Shown: piece after piece, positions 1,440 to 9,658 of the stretch | Position numbering within the stretch: the first letter of the stretch is position 1 | Layout: each line of letters begins with the position of its first letter | The notes under the pieces: generated by a model | Databases searched by the model: none | Told to the model about the DNA's origin: nothing | Seen by the model: only the letters and a program-made list of their open reading frames with translations | Program-made: the position numbers and the translations under genes | IMG/VR virus record: IMGVR_UViG_2541047827_000004 | Origin: a virus | Lineage: Duplodnaviria; Heunggongvirae; Uroviricota; Caudoviricetes | Length of the DNA stretch: 13,297 nt | Direction: 5' to 3' (one strand)

Positions 1440-2333
1440 GTGATGAATAAAAAATATGAACTGGTTGTTAAGGGGATAAATAATTACGGGGATAAGGTTA
1501 CTGTTACTGTGAAGTCGGAAGGTGACGGGCAAGCGTCGCTGTTGTTGCCAGATGTGGCGATTAGTCTTGACCGTACTGAAGGTGCCACGCTGGAGTTTTA
1601 CGAAGCTGAGGCGAAAAAGCAGGCGAAGCAGTTTTTCATGGATGTTGCTGCCGGGTTATGTGAAGGGGATGAGCAGTCGCCGGAAAAGCGCCCCGTAATT
1701 TTAGAGGCGCAGGATGTGTTGATAACCTACAAAGGAAAGCTACCGGGAAGAATTACTTGTTCTCTGAAGATGCCGCCGTCAACACTGCGGTCAGAAAAAG
1801 ATGATGTTGAATCACGTATTGAAAAACTGGAGAGCTACGTCGTTGAGCTGAATAAGAAATGGTCGATATTGGTGCCTTCTGGCGATGAAAAGCAGTTTGC
1901 TGCGTTTGACGATTATTGTCGGAAAGTGATGAGCAGAAATCTCGCAGAGTGTTTCAGTATTCATAATGATAATTTCAGTGACCCGGAATGGGAGTGTAAC
2001 CGGCCATCCTTTGTTGTATCCGGTGATGCTGGGAAAATAACCATCTCAGAAAATGGGAAAGTAACACCTCCATCGCACCAGCACAGTGAGGAGCTCATTG
2101 AATTTGCCATTGATTACCTGAAGAACAATAAAAAGCAGGGGCTGATGAAGCGCGTTGGCCGTTGCATGGGATATCTTCAGGTAGCCGCTGAGATTGAAGC
2201 GCTGGCCAGTGGTGCTGATAAGGATGCAATTGTGCGGGAGGCTCTTCTTCGTGATTTTAATACTCCACCCTTTAAAAAAGGGCCGGCTTACTGGCTTCAT
2301 CCGGGGCTGACTTATCTTAAAGTGCGTATTTAG
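1440..2333 (+). CDS. Hypothetical soluble protein (296-297 aa) inserted between holin and endolysin; function unknown
   Basis: Long intact ORF. The likely start is ATG 1443 (GTG at 1440 also in frame), with GGGGAGAG 7 nt upstream, 4 nt after the holin stop. No predicted TM segment or signal peptide and no motif I recognise; six Cys residues. Confidence 0.75.
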   Translation: MMNKKYELVVKGINNYGDKVTVTVKSEGDGQASLLLPDVAISLDRTEGATLEFYEAEAKKQAKQFFMDVAAGLCEGDEQSPEKRPVILEAQDVLITYKGKLPGRITCSLKMPPSTLRSEKDDVESRIEKLESYVVELNKKWSILVPSGDEKQFAAFDDYCRKVMSRNLAECFSIHNDNFSDPEWECNRPSFVVSGDAGKITISENGKVTPPSHQHSEELIEFAIDYLKNNKKQGLMKRVGRCMGYLQVAAEIEALASGADKDAIVREALLRDFNTPPFKKGPAYWLHPGLTYLKVRI

Positions 2334-3256: not shown

Positions 3257-3388
3257 ATGTCAGACAAACTCATAACGCTGGCGAAGATCCTCTGTGTAAT
3301 TGTCGGCATTTCATTTTCACTAATGCTGGTTGCTCTTTTTCTTTCCATGGCCTGGATGATGTTGTCTTCGTCGGGGTTGCTGGGGTGA
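3257..3388 (+). CDS. Small hydrophobic single-TM protein (43 aa), stop overlapping the Rz start
   Basis: ATG at 3257 with GGGAGG 6 nt upstream. Translation [43 protein letters not shown]. Its TGA (3386-3388) overlaps the Rz GTG (3385-3387) as GTGA. Confidence 0.4.
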
Positions 3389-3858
3389 ACATAAACCGAA
3401 TGCTTTCCGCGTTTATCGTTATTCTGCTGGTGGCCTGTGGTGCGCTGTGGATGGCAACAGACCATTACCGTGATAACGCGATTACCTACAAAGCGCAGCG
3501 CGATAACAAAGCCAGTGAACTGAAGCTGGCGAACGCAACCATTACTGATATGCAGGTGCGCCAGCGCGATGTTGCTGCGCTCGATGCAAAATACTCGAGG
3601 GAATTAGCCGATGCGAGAGCTGAAAATGAAACTCTTCGCGCTGACGTTGCCGCTGGTCGTAAGCGCCTGCGGATCAACGCCACCTGTCCAGGCTCCGTGC
3701 GTGAAGCCCCCACCACCTCCGGCGTGGATAATGCAACCGGCCCCCAACTGGCAGACACCGTTACACGGGATTATTTCACCCTCAGAGAGCGGCTGATGAC
3801 GATGCAGAAGCAACTGGAAGGGGCGCAGGAATATATCCGTACTCAGTGCCTGAAATAA
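3385..3858 (+). CDS. Rz: Rz inner-membrane spanin (i-spanin)
   Basis: N-terminal TM followed by ...[51 protein letters not shown]..., near-identical to remembered lambda Rz. Start is GTG 3385 or ATG 3400. Confidence 0.9.
3626..3796 (+). CDS. Rz1: Rz1 outer-membrane lipoprotein spanin (o-spanin), embedded in the +1 frame of Rz
   Basis: [56 protein letters not shown]: lipobox VVSAC and proline-rich core matching remembered lambda Rz1 ([14 protein letters not shown]). Nested entirely within Rz. Confidence 0.85.
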
Positions 3859-4184
3859 GTTTTGTTGATGCGCCGTATCGTCGCTATATTCCCTCATTAA
3901 CAGAGACCGCAGCCCGACAGGGAGACTCCTCTGCGCGAGTGTGCGGGGATAATCAAAAACGATACACACCGGGGTTTACCGCGTTAACGGAGCGCGGCGT
4001 TGTCCCCTCATAGTCGCCTGTCCGGTGCGATGGTGGAAGAAACAGGAAGCTGTATTACAGAAAGTGCTACTACTGTATCCCGATGCGATGTATGTAATGT
4101 GAGTCAGATAATGGCACAGGATGTGGTGATGTGGCAGTCTGGAACACAGGATATATTGTCAGAATAAGACCCGTAGGAATAAAA

Positions 4185-4511
4185 ATGAAAAGACGCCTTT
4201 TACTACTTTTTCTGTTATCTGTCCTGGCAGTGGGATGCTCGCAGCAAAAAGCTGATGAGCCCCGGCAATTAGTGACGGTGTATCCACGATATCCGGAATA
4301 TGCTGCAGCAAATTATATCAAGGGGCTGGTTGAGGTTAAGTTCGATATTGGTGCTGATGGGACTGTGACACGGATCGTTTTTCTCCGCTCAGAGCCTCAT
4401 AATTTGTTTCGTGATGAAGTGGTGAAGGCCATGGCGAAATGGCGATTTGAAAAGAATCGCCCCTGTCAGGGAGTGAAGAGACAATTTATCTTTACGCCGT
4501 CACGTCCTTGA
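4185..4511 (+). CDS. Small lipoprotein with a TonB C-terminal-like domain (109 aa)
   Basis: ATG 4185 with AGGAA upstream. Signal peptide plus lipobox (LAVGC). The mature part, VYPRYPEYAAANYIKGLVEVKFDIGADGTVTRIVFLRSEPHNLFRDEVVKAMAKWRF, aligns motif-for-motif with the E. coli TonB C-terminal domain ([53 protein letters not shown]). Confidence 0.75.
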   Translation: MKRRLLLLFLLSVLAVGCSQQKADEPRQLVTVYPRYPEYAAANYIKGLVEVKFDIGADGTVTRIVFLRSEPHNLFRDEVVKAMAKWRFEKNRPCQGVKRQFIFTPSRP

Positions 4512-4603
4512 TGCTTCCAGGTAGAGAGGGGCTGGACGCAGGAGAAAAATGAAAGAGCCAGCGGTTATATTTTTGTCATGGCTGACGAGGAATGATGGAA
4601 GAA

Positions 4604-4626
4604 GGCGTTGTATGCCACACAACGCC
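4604..4626. terminator. Hairpin between convergent genes (possible bidirectional terminator)
   Basis: Perfect 8-bp stem GGCGTTGT (4604-4611) / ACAACGCC (4619-4626) with a 7-nt loop; T-rich sequence follows on the + strand. The U tracts are interrupted, so it is weak as a canonical terminator. Confidence 0.3.
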
Positions 4627-4633
4627 TCACTGT

Positions 4634-4813
4634 TCATTTCTTCTTTTTCTCTGGTGGAACCCGATGAATAAGAGTTGCACTGGTTTCCGATGAGATGGCG
4701 ATATACTCGGGCAAAGTATGCTGGCAGTTTTCCAACTGGTCAAAAATACCTGCTCTCGTCTGTTGCAATGCCTGCAGCATGCGGCGGCAATGCGCCTTGC
4801 TTTTACTAACCAT
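4634..4813 (-). CDS. Hypothetical small protein (59 aa)
   Basis: ATG at 4813-4811 preceded on the minus strand by GAGGAAGGAAAG. The longer 117-aa ORF (4634..4987) overlaps the next minus-strand gene and is probably an over-extension. Confidence 0.3.
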   Translation of the reverse strand: MVSKSKAHCRRMLQALQQTRAGIFDQLENCQHTLPEYIAISSETSATLIHRVPPEKKKK

Positions 4814-4874
4814 CTTTCCTTCCTCTATCAGTCGCTGCGTGAACTCATCATGTAATACCAGGTAAATGCGGATG

Positions 4875-5126
4875 TTATCGGTTTTGGCTACGCAGCATAG
4901 TACAAAACGGACAGGTGCATCCCGGGACGGGGGAGGCGTCACATGTCCCTGTGATGGTTGTTCCGGGTAATGCACTGTGTGGGGCATAAAAATGTCCGAT
5001 AATTTTACTTTCTACCGCAGTTAGTTGATTCGTTGGTCCTGGTAGCACATTGGGCGAGGATTTAAATGCCAGGCAACTGAAGGATGATGTTGCAAGGGAG
5101 ATAGCGAGAATATTTCTGATTTTCAT
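4875..5126 (-). CDS. Hypothetical secreted Cys-rich small protein (83 aa)
   Basis: ATG at 5126-5124 with AGAGG about 9 nt upstream. N-terminal signal-peptide-like MKIRNILAISLATSSFSCLA; C-terminal Cys cluster TGTCDASPVPGCTCPFC. Lies just inside cos in the bor-like moron slot. Confidence 0.4.
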   Translation of the reverse strand: MKIRNILAISLATSSFSCLAFKSSPNVLPGPTNQLTAVESKIIGHFYAPHSALPGTTITGTCDASPVPGCTCPFCTMLRSQNR

Positions 5127-5262
5127 TTGATGATGCCTCTGTGTGAAATGACGGTAAACGACGCACTTGTGCCGGCACATAATAGCAAGCACCATAATAG
5201 ATCAGATTCGATTCTTGCTGTAAGTGATAATTATTCTCGTTTTCGGGTCCTTTCCGTCGATC

Positions 5263-5425
5263 CAACAGGTTACGGGGCGGCGACCTCGCGGGTTTTCGCT
5301 ATTTATGAAAATTTTCCGGGAACCATGTCCGGTTTCTCTTCAAGTTAACTATATGAAAAATAAAAAAAGAGGTCTTCTGTGAACCGGACATGCACAAAAA
5401 ATAGACATGTAAGCCGGACATGACC
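5263..5425 (+). promoter_or_regulatory. cos: cos site: cosN cohesive-end site (GGGCGGCGACCT, 5275..5286) plus cosB with three terminase-binding-like repeats
   Basis: CAGGTTACGGGGCGGCGACCTCGCGGGTTTTCGCTATTTATGAAAATTTTCCGG matches the lambda cos sequence as I remember it. Downstream repeats CATGTCCGG (5324-5332, inverted) and CCGGACATG (5384-5392 and 5414-5422) flank an AT-rich spacer. Located immediately upstream of the terminase genes. Confidence 0.85.
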
Positions 5426-5469
5426 GGTTTTGTTGTGATTGTGAAGTGAGAGTTTTTGCGAGGTGAGGA

Positions 5470-5979
5470 GTGGCTACGCAGACTGAAGTTGCCAGGCATT
5501 TAAGTCTGACCGATCGCCAGCTTCGCAGATTGCAGAAATTGCCGGGTGCCCCGATATCGAATAAGCGAGGGCAACTGGATCTGGATGCCTGGCGCGATTT
5601 TTACATATCGTATCTGAGAAGAAGTAAAAACGATGTGCCTGATGGCGATAGCGAAGACGACTATGAGGAGAAATTGCTTATTGCCAGATGGGAACTGACA
5701 GCAGAACAGGCTGTTACACAGCAGTTAAAAAATGAGGTGTCAAAAGGAAAACTTATTGATACCGGGTTCTGTATTTTTGCCCTCAGCAAGCTGGCAATGG
5801 CGTTATCCAGTACGCTTGATTCCATCCCTTTATCCATGCAGCGACAGTTTCCTGATTTAACACCGCGCCATCTTGACCATCTGAAAACCCTTATTGCGAA
5901 GGGGGCAAATCAGTGTGCGCGGGCGGGGGATAAATTACCGGATTTACTCGATGAATATATCAGAGCAACAACTGAATAA
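5470..5979 (+). CDS. nu1: Terminase small subunit (Nu1 / phage 21 gp1 family)
   Basis: GTG start at 5470 with GAGGTGAGGAG upstream. The C-terminal two-thirds resemble Nu1-family proteins; the N-terminal putative DNA-binding region is divergent. The 3' end overlaps the terminase large subunit start, as in lambda. Confidence 0.8.
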   Translation: MATQTEVARHLSLTDRQLRRLQKLPGAPISNKRGQLDLDAWRDFYISYLRRSKNDVPDGDSEDDYEEKLLIARWELTAEQAVTQQLKNEVSKGKLIDTGFCIFALSKLAMALSSTLDSIPLSMQRQFPDLTPRHLDHLKTLIAKGANQCARAGDKLPDLLDEYIRATTE

Positions 5980-7879
5980 TATGATGAGTGCTGTCACAAC
6001 AGCATTACAGCCCCTGATAAGGGCATTGCCGGTGACGCCAGTTGAATGGGCTGATCAAAATTATTATCTGCCTAAAGAATCTTCATATGGTGAGGGAGAA
6101 TGGAAAACGCTGCCGTTCCAGATCGCCATCATGAACAGCATGGGGAATGATCAGATCCGGACTGTTAATCTGATTAAATCTGCCCGTGTTGGCTATACAA
6201 AGATGTTGCTGGGGGTGGTCGGGTATTTTATTGAGCATAAATCCCGAAACAGTCTGCTTTTTCAGCCCACGGATTCTGCCGCTGAAGATTTTATGAAGTC
6301 TCACGTGGAGGCGACGATTCGGGATGTGCCATGTCTGAAAGACCTTTTTCCATGGCTGGGGCGTAAACATCGTGACAATACCCTCACGCTGAAACGCTTT
6401 TCATCGGGTGTGGGTTTCTGGTGCCTGGGCGGCGCTGCCGCCAAAAACTACCGTGAAAAATCCGTGGACGTGGTCTGCTATGACGAACTTTCCTCGTTCG
6501 AACCGGATGTCGAAAAAGAGGGTTCGCCAACCCTGCTTGGGGATAAACGTATTGAGGGCTCTGTATGGCCCAAATCCATTCGCGGCTCGACGCCTAAAAT
6601 CAAAGGCACCTGCCAGATCGAAAAAGCGGCCAACGAGTCGGCGCATTTCATGCGTTTTTATGTGCCCTGCCCACACTGTGGGGAGGAGCAGTATCTGAAA
6701 TTTGGCGATGAATCCACGCCTTTTGGCCTTAAATGGGAGAAGGACAGCCCCGAAAGCGTTTTCTACCTCTGTGAACATCATGGCTGCGTGATCCATCAGT
6801 CTGAGCTTGACCAGAGCAACGGGCGGTGGATCTGTGAAAACACGGGGATGTGGACCCGTGACGGTCTGACGTTTTTCAGCGCCGCGGATAATGAAATTCC
6901 GCCGCCGCGCTCCATCACGTTCCATATCTGGACGGCGTACAGTCCGTTCACCACCTGGGTACAGATAGTCTATGACTGGCTGGATGCACTGAAAGATCCC
7001 AACGGCCTGAAAACCTTTGTGAACACCACGCTGGGCGAGACCTGGGAAGAGGCCGTGGGCGAAAAACTCGATCACCAGGTACTGATGGATAAGGTCGTGC
7101 ATTACACGGCGGCGGTGCCAGCCCGGGTGGTTTATCTGACGGCGGGCATTGACTCGCAGCGAAACCGTTTTGAGATGTATGTCTGGGGATGGGCACCGGG
7201 AGAGGAAGCTTTTCTGGTGGATAAAATCATCATTATGGGCCGTCCCGATGAGGAAGAGACGCTGTTACGTGTGGATGCGGCGATCAACAAAAAATACTGC
7301 CATGCAGACGGAACCGAAATGACCATTTCCCGTGTCTGCTGGGACACCGGGGGGATCGATGGTGAAATTGTCTATCAGAGGTCAAAAAAACACGGTGTTT
7401 TCCGTGTGCTGCCGGTAAAAGGCGCGTCTGTCTATGGCAAGCCGGTGATCACCATGCCGAAAACCCGCAATCAGCGGGGCGTGTATCTGTGTGAAGTGGG
7501 GACGGACACCGCAAAAGAAATTCTCTATGCCCGTATGAAAGCCGATCCCACGCCTGCGGATGAAGCCACGTCGTATGCCATCCGTTTTCCTGATGATCCG
7601 GAGATTTTTTCGCAGACAGAGGCGCAGCAACTGGTCGCGGAAGAGCTTGTGGAGAAGTGGGAAAAAGGAAAGATGCGTCTGCTGTGGGATAACAAAAAGC
7701 GGCGTAACGAAGCGCTGGACTGCCTGGTGTATGCCTATGCGGCATTACGTGTGTCCGTGCAACGCTGGCAGCTTGATCTGGCTGTACTGGCAAAATCCCG
7801 GGAAGAAGAGACGACCCGGCCAACCCTTAAAGAACTGGCAGCGAAGCTGTCCGGAGGAGTGAATGGTTACAGTCGCTGA
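5951..7879 (+). CDS. A: Terminase large subunit (lambda gpA-like)
   Basis: From ATG 5951 (MNISEQQLNN...) the translation is collinear with remembered lambda gpA (VEWADQNYYLPKESSYGEGEWKTLPFQ..., KNYREKSVDV, C-terminal KKRRNEALDC). The track ORF 5894..7879 has an over-extended N-terminus. Confidence 0.95.
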   Translation: MNISEQQLNNMMSAVTTALQPLIRALPVTPVEWADQNYYLPKESSYGEGEWKTLPFQIAIMNSMGNDQIRTVNLIKSARVGYTKMLLGVVGYFIEHKSRNSLLFQPTDSAAEDFMKSHVEATIRDVPCLKDLFPWLGRKHRDNTLTLKRFSSGVGFWCLGGAAAKNYREKSVDVVCYDELSSFEPDVEKEGSPTLLGDKRIEGSVWPKSIRGSTPKIKGTCQIEKAANESAHFMRFYVPCPHCGEEQYLKFGDESTPFGLKWEKDSPESVFYLCEHHGCVIHQSELDQSNGRWICENTGMWTRDGLTFFSAADNEIPPPRSITFHIWTAYSPFTTWVQIVYDWLDALKDPNGLKTFVNTTLGETWEEAVGEKLDHQVLMDKVVHYTAAVPARVVYLTAGIDSQRNRFEMYVWGWAPGEEAFLVDKIIIMGRPDEEETLLRVDAAINKKYCHADGTEMTISRVCWDTGGIDGEIVYQRSKKHGVFRVLPVKGASVYGKPVITMPKTRNQRGVYLCEVGTDTAKEILYARMKADPTPADEATSYAIRFPDDPEIFSQTEAQQLVAEELVEKWEKGKMRLLWDNKKRRNEALDCLVYAYAALRVSVQRWQLDLAVLAKSREEETTRPTLKELAAKLSGGVNGYSR

Positions 7880-8069
7880 ACTACAGGCGCTGCGTCAGGC
7901 GCGCCTTGATTTATTAACCGGTAAACGGGTGGTGTCTGTCCAGAAAGATGGTCGCAGAATTGAATATACGGCGGCCTCTCTGGATGAGCTTAACCGTGCG
8001 ATCAATGATGCTGAGTTGGTACTGGGGACAACCCGCCGTCGCCGTCGTCCGCTGGGAGTGAGGTTATGA
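7863..8069 (+). CDS. W: Head-tail joining protein W
   Basis: 68 aa; LLTGKRVVSVQKDGRRIEYTAASL matches lambda gpW ([23 protein letters not shown]). GGAGGAG RBS; start overlaps the terminase 3' end. Confidence 0.9.
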   Translation: MVTVAELQALRQARLDLLTGKRVVSVQKDGRRIEYTAASLDELNRAINDAELVLGTTRRRRRPLGVRL

Positions 8070-9658
8070 AACGAACGCCTGTCCTGATTGATGTGAACGG
8101 CGTTCCGCTTCGTGAGAGTCTCAGCTACAACGGGGGCGGCGCAGGATTTGGCGGGCAAATGGCGGAGTGGTTGCCACCGGCGCAGAGTGCCGATGCGGCC
8201 CTGCTACCCGCGTTGCGTCTGGGGAATGCCCGGGCAGATGATCTGGTGCGCAATAACGGAATAGCGGCTAATGCGGTGGCTCTGCATAAGGATCACATTG
8301 TCGGGCATATGTTTCTTATCAGCTACCGCCCGAACTGGCGCTGGTTGGGGATGCGGGAGACCGCGACAAAAAGTTTTGTCGATGAGGTGGAGGCGGCCTG
8401 GTCAGAATACGCAGAAGGGGTGTTTGGCGAGATCGACGTGGAAGGGAAACGCACGTTTACAGAATTTATTCGTGAAGGTGTGGGCGTTCATGCGTTTAAC
8501 GGCGAAATCTTTGTGCAGCCGGTCTGGGATACGGAAACCACGCAGTTATTCCGTACGCGTTTTAAAGCCGTGAGTCCGAAACGGGTGGACACGCCTGGAC
8601 ACGGTATGGGGAACCGTTTTCTGCGGGCCGGGGTGGAGGTCGATCGATATGGTCGTGCCGTTGCGTACCATATCTGTGAGGATGATTTTCCGTTCTCCGG
8701 GAGTGGACGATGGGAACGGATCCCGCGTGAACTTCCCACCGGGCGTCCGGCCATGCTGCATATTTTCGAGCCGGTGGAGGACGGGCAGACCCGTGGGGCT
8801 AATCAGTTTTACAGCGTCATGGAACGGCTGAAGATGCTCGATTCCCTGCAGGCAACACAGCTTCAGTCGGCCATAGTGAAGGCGATGTATGCAGCGACGA
8901 TTGAAAGTGAACTTGATACCGAAAAGGCCTTTGAATATATCGCCGGTGCGCCGCAGGGGCAGAAGGATAATCCGCTTATTAATATTCTGGATAAGTTCTC
9001 CACCTGGTATGACACGAATCACGTGACGCTGGGCGGTGTCAAAATTCCGCACCTTTTCCCCGGTGATGATCTGAAACTTCAGACCGCGCAGGATTCAGAC
9101 AATGGATTTTCGGCGCTTGAACAGGCGCTGCTGCGGTATATCGCCGCCGGTCTTGGCGTTTCCTACGAACAGTTGTCCCGTGATTACTCGAAGGTCAGTT
9201 ATTCAAGTGCCCGCGCATCCGCCAATGAGTCGTGGCGCTATTTTATGGGGCGGCGAAAATTTATTGCGTCCCGGCTGGCCACGCAGATGTTTTCCTGCTG
9301 GCTGGAAGAGGCACTTCTTCGGGGGATTATTCGTCCGCCACGGGCACGTTTTGATTTTTATCAGGCGCGATCAGCCTGGTCACGGGCTGAGTGGATTGGA
9401 GCCGGAAGAATGGCCATTGACGGGCTCAAGGAGGTTCAGGAATCAGTGATGCGCATTGAGGCCGGACTGAGCACGTATGAGAAAGAGCTGGCGCTGATGG
9501 GCGAGGATTATCAGGACATTTTCCGCCAGCAGGTCAGGGAATCTGCAGAGCGGGAAAAAGCCGGACTCTCACGTCCGGTGTGGATAGCGCAGGCGTATCA
9601 GCAGCAGATAGCGGAGAGTCGCAGGCCGGAAGAGGAGACAACACCACGTGAGACGTAA
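8066..9658 (+). CDS. B: Portal protein (lambda gpB-like)
   Basis: 530 aa in the lambda B position; ATG overlaps the W stop (ATGA). Size and synteny fit the lambda portal. Confidence 0.9.
   Translation: MKRTPVLIDVNGVPLRESLSYNGGGAGFGGQMAEWLPPAQSADAALLPALRLGNARADDLVRNNGIAANAVALHKDHIVGHMFLISYRPNWRWLGMRETATKSFVDEVEAAWSEYAEGVFGEIDVEGKRTFTEFIREGVGVHAFNGEIFVQPVWDTETTQLFRTRFKAVSPKRVDTPGHGMGNRFLRAGVEVDRYGRAVAYHICEDDFPFSGSGRWERIPRELPTGRPAMLHIFEPVEDGQTRGANQFYSVMERLKMLDSLQATQLQSAIVKAMYAATIESELDTEKAFEYIAGAPQGQKDNPLINILDKFSTWYDTNHVTLGGVKIPHLFPGDDLKLQTAQDSDNGFSALEQALLRYIAAGLGVSYEQLSRDYSKVSYSSARASANESWRYFMGRRKFIASRLATQMFSCWLEEALLRGIIRPPRARFDFYQARSAWSRAEWIGAGRMAIDGLKEVQESVMRIEAGLSTYEKELALMGEDYQDIFRQQVRESAEREKAGLSRPVWIAQAYQQQIAESRRPEEETTPRET

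Follow-up and report, generated by a model that had tools for sequence, protein, structure and literature searches.

The window analysed here, a stretch of 13,297 nucleotides from the IMG/VR virus record IMGVR_UViG_2541047827_000004, represents the late region of a lambda-like prophage of Escherichia coli. Between the lysis genes and the terminase genes of this prophage lies a small gene (positions 4185 to 4511) which encodes a predicted lipoprotein with a single folded domain of the TonB_C family. The following features were assigned to this gene:

4175 to 4178, plus strand: Shine-Dalgarno sequence AGGA, 6 nucleotides 5' of the ATG, as read from the sequence
4185 to 4511, plus strand: coding sequence of the TonB_C lipoprotein, with the ATG at 4185 and the TGA at 4509-4511 (108 amino acids plus stop)
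4185 to 4238, plus strand: predicted signal peptide with lipobox, residues 1-18, ending in LAVG/C, from the lipobox rule check; Cys18 is the predicted lipidated N-terminus
4239 to 4259, plus strand: linker, residues 19-25, SQQKADE, delimited by the model confidence profile and by the start of the TonB alignment (residues 23-26)
4260 to 4499, plus strand: TonB C-terminal domain, residues 26-105, from profile searches, phmmer, AlphaFold2 and Foldseek

In the encoded protein of 108 amino acids, a cleavable lipoprotein signal is thus followed by a 7-residue linker and then by the C-terminal domain (CTD) of TonB, without a transmembrane anchor and without a Pro-rich spacer. The signal peptide (residues 1-18, MKRRLLLLFLLSVLAVGC) satisfies a PROSITE-type lipobox rule, {DERK}(6)-[LIVMFWSTAG](2)-[LIVMFYSTAGCQ]-[AGS]-C, with the Cys at 15-35 and a Lys or Arg within the first 7 residues. 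The lipobox stretch LFLLSVLAVGC occupies residues 8-18, three Lys or Arg residues are present among the first 7 residues, and the h-region is uncharged. For lipoproteins sorted by the Lol system, an Asp at position +2 serves as a Lol avoidance signal, whereas other residues at this position direct the protein to the outer membrane. The +2 residue after Cys18 is Ser (S19), and the Asp Lol avoidance signal is therefore absent. On the basis of the lipobox and the Ser at +2, the product is predicted to be lipidated and sorted to the outer membrane. The same features are seen across the family: in all 14 aligned members the lipobox Cys is invariant, and the +2 residue is S, T or A but never Asp.

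The assignment of the remainder of the protein to the TonB_C family is supported by matches to Pfam TonB_C (PF03544; E=7e-13, 49.2 bits with a cutoff of 24.6) and TIGR01352 (47.4 bits with a cutoff of 27.1). A phmmer search against PDB sequences aligned residues 23-103 without gaps to residues 150-230 of E. coli TonB (E~1e-14), and the YP motif, the VKFD..DG.V motif and the F.(R/E)EV..AM..WR motif were all found in this alignment. The identity between the two proteins is 38-40%. An AlphaFold2 model, which was built from a 27-sequence alignment, had a mean predicted local distance difference test (pLDDT) score of 87.6, with 80 residues scoring above 90. By block, the score was 56 over residues 1-20, then 82 and then 96. 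This model could be superimposed on the E. coli TonB CTD (1u07) with a root mean square deviation (rmsd) of 0.8 Å over 81 columns, and it had a template modelling score of 0.92 relative to BtuB-bound TonB (2gsk_B). The best Foldseek matches were 1u07, 2gsk_B, 1xx3 and 2grx_C, with rmsd values of 0.7-1.2 Å; among them are structures in which TonB is bound to BtuB or FhuA.

The model has an alpha/beta fold in which two helices go with a three-stranded sheet, as in the TonB CTD. Its secondary structure elements are beta0 (residues 28-30), alpha1 (38-42), beta1 (47-55), beta2 (61-70), alpha2 (76-83) and beta3 (94-103). Strand beta3, which corresponds to TonB residues 221-230, is kept, and so is the aromatic core, where F53, F75, W86, F88 and F103 are the equivalents of TonB F180, F202, W213, Y215 and F230. 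Likewise, Y36-P37 corresponds to Y163-P164 of TonB, and the C-terminal end of the protein to TonB residue 235. Cys94 (4464-4466) is an unpaired Cys in the loop preceding beta3 of the allele shared by the window and phage 21; R, Y, S, T or V is found in other alleles. This Cys could make an intermolecular disulfide in the periplasm.

Full-length TonB equivalog models (NCBIfam PRK10819) gave at best 69.2 bits, which is below their cutoffs of 265-448, and only the last ~85 profile positions were matched. The product is a member of the TonB_C domain family that lacks the defining features of the TonB energy transducer. A previous sequence-only reading of this DNA had arrived at the same architecture. 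It had claimed a signal peptide with a lipobox, which is borne out by the PROSITE-type rule, Cys18 and the Ser at +2, and a TonB C-terminal-like domain with the motifs listed above, which is confirmed by PF03544, TIGR01352, phmmer, AlphaFold2 and Foldseek. Both checks that it had named for this domain, a hidden Markov model (HMM) search against TonB_C and a structure prediction, gave a clear positive result (49.2 bits versus 24.6, and a TonB CTD fold at 0.8 Å from 1u07). It had also noted that the N-terminal transmembrane anchor and the proline-rich spacer of TonB are missing, and this agrees with the length of 108 amino acids and the score of 69 bits against the full-length cutoffs of 265-448.

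The gene order in the window is P21-type holin, an open reading frame (ORF) with DUF1327, lysozyme, Rz/Rz1, the TonB_C gene, terminase, portal, protease/scaffold, decoration and major capsid. The TonB_C gene starts 326 nucleotides past Rz and has the same orientation as the late operon. The relevant features of its surroundings are:

1223 to 1438: P21-type holin
1440 to 2333, plus strand: ORF of 297 amino acids with an N-terminal DUF1327, between holin and endolysin
2370 to 2903: lysozyme
3385 to 3858, plus strand: Rz i-spanin, at the end of the lysis cassette
3611 to 3796, plus strand: Rz1 o-spanin, embedded in Rz
4022 to 5274, plus strand: mobile module shared with phage 21, with 4 differences in ~1250 nucleotides; it ends at the phage 21 right cohesive end (cos)
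5470 to 5979, plus strand: terminase small subunit, the first packaging/head gene and the right border of the slot

The TonB_C gene travels in a cos-proximal module of ~1.25 kb, because the block from 4022 to 5274 is near-identical to phage 21 while its flank is diverged. In the 150 nucleotides preceding position 4022 there are 44 differences relative to phage 21, which places the junction of the module at ~4022. The module has a guanine-plus-cytosine (GC) content of 0.465, as compared to 0.549 for the head genes. We considered whether the gene itself represents an island of conservation, since its ORF is 100% identical to that of phage 21 and the head genes only ~94%. This idea was rejected, because the entire block from 4022 to 5274 has just 4 differences and is thus a recently shared module.

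In phage 21 and in E. coli Nissle 1917, bor/iss lies between Rz and the TonB_C gene; the window has no bor. Since phage 21 and Nissle carry both genes in the slot, bor and the TonB_C gene are neighbours and not alternatives. The sequence-only reading had placed the gene in the post-Rz slot where lambda carries bor. The location is correct, as Rz and Rz1 lie at 3385-3858 and 3611-3796, but the notion that the gene replaces bor does not hold, given that both are found in phage 21 and Nissle. Its further claim of a phage-encoded gene in a moron-like position agrees with the lambda-like late region and the post-Rz slot. When presence and absence were compared as a test for a moron, the gene was found in 7 of 27 lambdoid phage records that carry sitABCD.

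Several other features of this region should be mentioned. In strain NR363, the counterpart of the ORF at 1440-2333 is annotated as a truncated YdfR-family pseudogene. The ORF at 131-466 on the minus strand corresponds to a gene of NR363 annotated as the anti-adapter protein IraM, an RpoS stabiliser, and is cargo upstream of the lysis cassette on the opposite strand. Within the module, the minus-strand ORF 4634-4813 matches PHROG 4843 (unknown function) with E=3e-46; in RefSeq and in the record of phage 21, the annotated ORFs overlap it on the plus strand (4718-4855). An unannotated minus-strand ORF at 4875-5195 has a signal-peptide-like segment and a Cys-rich tail. The small ORF at 4030-4167, upstream of the TonB_C gene (CPT_21_72 in phage 21), is probably not a gene, as its frame is not kept in a 72%-identical allele and it has no PHROG match. 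An Rfam scan of positions 3300-5600 matched no family.

The TonB_C gene of the window shows 100% identity with both phage 21 CPT_21_73, annotated as 'TonB C-terminal domain protein', and RefSeq WP_000830178.1 ('TonB family protein'). It is found in 1225 of 5426 complete E. coli genomes (~23%), nearly always with at least 99% identity, and the 72%-identical allele is present in a further 415 E. coli genomes (~8%) and in Stx1a phages. An exhaustive HMMER search retrieved ~2800 TonB_C proteins, the closest of which include many short ones (107-133 amino acids) that match from residue 1. Most of these short close relatives have a lipobox, and a few have an ordinary signal peptide. The hosts of the family are E. 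coli, Salmonella, Klebsiella, Rahnella, Erwinia/Pantoea and Gibbsiella. The slot between lysis cassette and terminase, with the gene in the same orientation, was seen in at least 5 phage types of E. coli, Salmonella, Klebsiella and Rahnella, with several unrelated head/terminase modules. Representative alleles are listed below, with percentages relative to the window gene unless stated otherwise:

72% allele: 72%, E. coli, after Rz1 and before HNH
P0037: 44%, Salmonella enterica prophage, with the order DUF2514 spanin, gene, HNH/Terminase_4/HK97-type head
P0042: 38%, Klebsiella prophage, with the order holin, GH108 endolysin, spanins, gene, Terminase_2/6N
P0089: 31-32%, Rahnella prophage, with the order holin, GH19, Rz, gene, DUF1441/GpA terminase
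L031-L036 (IMG/VR): 39-43% to P0037, with the order Q, holin, lysozyme, LysB/LysC, gene, metallopeptidase, DUF2280, Terminase_3
P0041: 42%, Gibbsiella, chromosomal
P0050: 35%, chromosomal
P0117: 35%, Erwinia/Pantoea, not phage-associated
P0071: 36-37%, plasmid-borne (ParM/StbB), next to the defence genes KAP-NTPase and QatB

A relative in the same slot as P0042 is also present in Klebsiella phage ST13-OXA48phi12.4. In the case of P0071 (region 5001-9646 of the plasmid contig L021), the TonB_C lipoprotein gene is immediately followed by genes for DUF6694, a KAP-family NTPase and QatB, which are genes of the Qat defence system. This neighbourhood lends weak guilt-by-association support to a role in defence. 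The C-terminus of PHROG 34172 (251 positions) matches the TonB_C domain with E=2.5e-15, and some phages may therefore encode full-length TonB-like proteins.

Comparison of the window gene with the 72% E. coli allele gave a ratio of nonsynonymous to synonymous substitution rates (dN/dS) of 0.12, with dS ~1.5. In view of this value and the conservation described above, the members of the family are selected, mobile genes and not dead pieces of tonB. The genes for the Fe/Mn importer SitABCD were present in 7 of 7 phage records with the identical allele, where they follow the side tail fibre gene (phage 21 OL657228, 21967-25416; L016, 9968-13417). As a general rule this linkage was rejected, because 20 sit-positive phages lack the TonB_C gene and the window-type prophage of NR363 lacks sit, which indicates lineage linkage. 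It is suggestive that a TonB-independent metal importer travels with a putative inhibitor of TonB, although this, too, looks like a linkage by lineage.

The upstream regions of family members were compared side by side and then scored against the classical Fur consensus GATAATGATAATCATTATC, which has 19 positions. A match of at least 14/19 was found within 112 nucleotides upstream of the gene in 8 of 13 lineages, with a range of 14-16/19, and it usually outscored all others in the locus. The top-scoring site of the locus lies 10-44 nucleotides before the start codon in most lineages, and the Fur-like sites of some relatives are perfect (TGATAATnATTATCA). For 8 of 13 lineages and a pooled background from the same loci, the binomial tail is ~1e-11. 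It should be noted that this value is overstated, since the Salmonella-type promoters are homologous and only ~5 lineages are clearly independent. The individual matches are:

Salmonella phages: TGATAATtATTATCA, a perfect 7-1-7 site, 15/19
IMG/VR L030: TGATAATcATTATCA, 16/19
L031-L036 clade: TGAAAATcATTATCA, 15-16/19
P0040: 15/19
P0039: 14/19
Erwinia/Pantoea P0117: TGAGAATgATTATCA, 15/19
Gibbsiella P0041: 15/19
P0050: 14/19
72% E. coli allele: palindrome AGAATAAGaCTTATTCT, 13/19
Plasmid copy P0071: 13/19

Judged from these sequences, the sites are likely to be bound by Fur. If this holds, the family would be switched on together with TonB and its transporters, as part of the same iron-starvation regulon. 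The best Fur-like match of the window itself (15/19; 5226-5244, minus strand, GAAAACGAGAATAATTATC) is probably a packaging-site element and not a Fur box, because it lies ~30-50 nucleotides from the equivalent of the phage 21 right cos (~5274) and adjoins the annotated cosQ. The same site is located upstream of the minus-strand ORF 4875-5195.

Among the possible mechanisms, the best supported is that of a TonB decoy which is tethered to the outer membrane and competes for TonB boxes. We put it forward tentatively; such a decoy had already been suggested by the sequence-only reading. According to this proposal, the lipoprotein would reside in the inner leaflet of the outer membrane, with a complete TonB CTD as its sole folded part on a 7-residue tether. 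Because the tether is so short, the domain would have access only to partners on the inner side of the outer membrane, the site at which TonB boxes appear, both those of TonB-dependent transporters and those of group-B colicins on their way in. TonB boxes would be captured through beta-strand addition to the beta3 edge, as in TonB. In the complexes of TonB with FhuA and BtuB, the TonB box pairs with beta3 as a parallel strand, and for its activity secondary structure matters more than side chains do (Braun review, PMC11658791). As there is no link to ExbB/ExbD, no force would be transmitted and the protein would be a competitive, non-productive binder. The resulting competition with host TonB would lower energy-dependent passage, namely the irreversible adsorption and DNA entry of TonB-dependent phages, the import of colicins and microcins and, to some degree, the uptake of siderophores. 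The gene would represent an accessory gene (moron) of the lysis-to-terminase slot, most relatives of which would be turned on by iron starvation via Fur, when the transporters are derepressed. The receptor of phage 21 is LamB, and any exclusion would therefore be aimed at other phages and bacteriocins and not at phage 21 itself.

This proposal draws on the whole CTD fold including beta3, the lipobox and short linker, the precedents of TonB fragments and Llp/Cor, the evidence for selection, the constant slot and the Fur boxes in relatives. With respect to the first of these, the phage protein shares with the CTD of E. coli TonB (residues 150-239; 1u07, 2gsk, 2grx) the fold, the YP motif, the aromatic core, beta3 and a similar net positive charge. 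It differs from TonB in that it has no N-terminal transmembrane helix, Pro-rich rod or link to ExbB/ExbD, in that it would be anchored from the outer and not from the inner membrane, and in that it is phage-encoded. Periplasmic TonB fragments (33-239, 103-239 and 122-239) have been reported to inhibit the activity of the TonB system and ferrichrome transport (bioRxiv 10.1101/2020.01.05.895219). In these engineered fragments a periplasmic CTD is likewise uncoupled from the energy source. However, they are soluble, artificial and over-expressed, whereas the phage protein is natural, shorter (CTD only) and, as predicted, lipid-tethered.

Llp of phage T5 and Cor of phages phi80, N15 and HK022 are small lipoproteins made by phages. 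Located in the inner leaflet of the outer membrane, they act on the TonB-dependent transporter FhuA from its periplasmic side, and the binding of Llp and TonB to FhuA is mutually exclusive. Llp and Cor are specific for FhuA and act allosterically on its surface loops, whereas the target of a TonB mimic would be the TonB box, and many transporters could be affected. Llp (8A60) was absent among the 50 PDB matches listed for our model, and no BFVD match was obtained at E<=1e-3, while the Llp fold has been reported to be common in BFVD. As judged from the model, the fold of the phage TonB_C lipoprotein is unrelated to Llp/Cor, and the likeness concerns the outcome only.

We infer the binding of TonB boxes by the product, as well as the phenotype that would follow from it. 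The output of such binding is uncertain, as it might be exclusion of phages and colicins or a tuning of iron uptake. In particular, it is conceivable, though in our view doubtful, that during iron starvation a Fur-controlled TonB-docking mimic at the inner face of the outer membrane shields the lysogen broadly and irrespective of the receptor from all TonB-dependent phages, from group-B colicins and from siderophore-mimicking microcins.

A number of observations weigh against the decoy proposal. Firstly, TonB residues R158, Q160, Q162 and R166, which have been tied to contact with the TonB box or FhuA, are T, Y, R and Y in the phage protein. Secondly, the window allele has no Fur box, its best upstream match of 10/19 being at background level; the Klebsiella and Rahnella alleles share this exception to the Fur pattern. 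Neither is there a convincing sigma-70 promoter at the window allele, the best candidate being a weak extended -10-like element, TGtCAGAAT, and the gene may perhaps be made only from the late lytic transcript. Thirdly, if iron starvation induced a general inhibitor of TonB, iron uptake would suffer, yet the gene is found in ~23% of the complete E. coli genomes, including the siderophore-dependent Nissle. Chromosomal, non-phage relatives with Fur boxes (Gibbsiella, Erwinia/Pantoea) fit a housekeeping role in iron physiology at least as well as defence. Lastly, no PADLOC defence-model match was obtained, and no published functional study was found in the searchable literature; the genome announcement of phage 21 merely lists the gene.

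The features that may bear on the expression of the window allele are:

4157 to 4170, plus strand: extended -10-like element TGtCAGAAT (4157-4165), overlapping AGAATAAGAC (4161-4170)
4603 to 4627, plus strand: GC-rich 9-bp hairpin 3' of the gene, z = -2.3, with a U-rich run ~13 nucleotides after the stem; not called by the terminator scan

Scans for sigma-70, Fur and CRP motifs upstream of the window gene yielded nothing above background, and a terminator scan predicted none between Rz and the TonB_C gene. At the corresponding position the 72% allele has the palindrome AGAATAAGaCTTATTCT, of which AGAATAAGAC is the left half. The window lacks the other half, and positions 4157-4170 may represent the remnant of an operator or promoter. 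The hairpin is a possible weak terminator. A block TGTGA...GTC(A/G)GATAAT, ~75 nucleotides upstream of the start (window 4098-4112; L117, L012), is kept in three E. coli alleles amid diverged sequence, and it could be a real -10 region or an operator.

Of the other explanations, the one that survives best is unlikely in our opinion. It holds that the outer-membrane lipoprotein uses its TonB_C fold for a target other than the TonB box, such as peptidoglycan, Lpp/OmpA or a host factor, and that it is an envelope or virulence moron like Bor/Iss. This would be in line with the slot shared with bor/iss in phage 21 and Nissle, with the lack of conservation of the TonB-box contact residues, and with the fact that TonB_C/TolA-like folds serve other partners, as exemplified by the FusB CTD and ferredoxin (9hi3) and by TolA with g3p. 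On the other hand, the Fur boxes tie the family to the iron/TonB regulon, and the nearest structural matches, at ~1 Å rmsd, are without exception genuine TonB CTDs and not TolA. The similarity to lambda Bor/Iss and other morons located between lysis genes and cos lies in the slot, the small outer-membrane lipoprotein, a GC content below that of the structural genes and the patchy presence among similar phages. However, the sequence and fold are unrelated, and bor has a promoter of its own and is encoded on the other strand, while the TonB_C gene is co-oriented with the late operon.

Somewhat less likely still is the view that the protein does bind TonB boxes but serves iron physiology instead of defence, for example by capping idle transporters such that the scarce TonB goes to the loaded ones, which would make it a fitness factor of the lysogen. 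The occurrence of Fur boxes in both phage copies and chromosomal, non-phage copies would fit this view, as would the presence of sitABCD in 7 of 7 phage records with the identical allele. To our knowledge, however, no mechanism is known by which iron uptake is tuned through the capping of TonB boxes. Moreover, the sit linkage is confined to one lineage, as shown by the sit-less prophage of NR363, and the window allele has no Fur box. Control by Fur as such has parallels among prophage cargo, namely the stx1 promoter and sitABCD. Among the TonB_C relatives, Fur boxes of the consensus type are likewise situated at the gene start, and these genes would be phage cargo that reads the iron status of the host. 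They differ from these examples in that the window allele has lost the box and in that the product is neither a toxin nor a transporter.

It is improbable that the protein traps host TonB at the outer membrane by forming heterodimers with the TonB CTD, instead of acting on the transporters. TonB CTDs do dimerise in crystals (1u07 and 1ihr are among the matches), and the aromatic residues that have been implicated in TonB-TonB contacts are conserved. Nevertheless, the physiological relevance of CTD dimers is disputed. Also, TonB is far scarcer than the transporters, so that a block of this type would be efficient but very costly. A role as lysis accessory or spanin-type protein is highly improbable. 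It is suggested by a match to PHROG 1267, 'Rz-like spanin' (E=5e-43), and by the position of an outer-membrane lipoprotein gene right after the spanin genes in late-operon orientation. However, a complete Rz/Rz1 or LysB/LysC pair is already present upstream in the window and in relatives, and a globular domain of 90 amino acids is neither a short Pro-rich o-spanin nor a u-spanin, the C-terminal transmembrane segment of which is missing. In addition, the relatives are predicted to be Fur-regulated, and some are chromosomal or plasmid-borne. The PHROG 1267 label looks like an annotation error that has spread from the position and the lipobox. Lastly, the idea of a non-functional, captured fragment of host tonB, which is reflected in database names such as 'Partial tonB-like', 'TonB fragment' and 'truncated TonB-like' and in the coverage of just the last third of TonB, is effectively refuted by selection and conservation, as the identity to E. 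coli TonB is only 38-40%, members from different genera share an acquired signal peptide and lipobox, the dN/dS ratio is 0.12, more than 1200 genomes carry an intact ORF and putatively regulated promoters are kept in relatives.

The ORF itself is already present in databases and is not new. In the literature available for search, we found no description of its lipoprotein nature, its fixed slot across phage types, the Fur boxes or any function. We assign the gene to the phage outer-membrane lipoprotein morons that act on TonB-dependent transporters, where such an action is inferred for the present protein. The gene is widespread, being carried by ~23% of the complete E. coli genomes with the 72% allele in another ~8%, and by phage 21, the probiotic Nissle 1917 and prophages of Salmonella and Klebsiella, and yet no published function was found for it.

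If the protein is a TonB decoy, it would be an exclusion or immunity factor of a new kind, which hits the shared energy-coupling step and not a single receptor. The underlying principle of superinfection exclusion and bacteriocin immunity would then be mimicry of the host energy transducer, as opposed to receptor masking. Carriage of the gene would in this case alter the sensitivity of the host to TonB-dependent therapy phages, to the colicins and microcins of gut competition, and to siderophore-conjugated antibiotics that require TonB. The interaction between TonB and its transporters is being pursued as a target for antibacterials, and the protein would then also offer a minimal inhibitor of it from nature. 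With their Fur boxes, the relatives provide a testable case of phage cargo that is wired into the iron regulon of the host.

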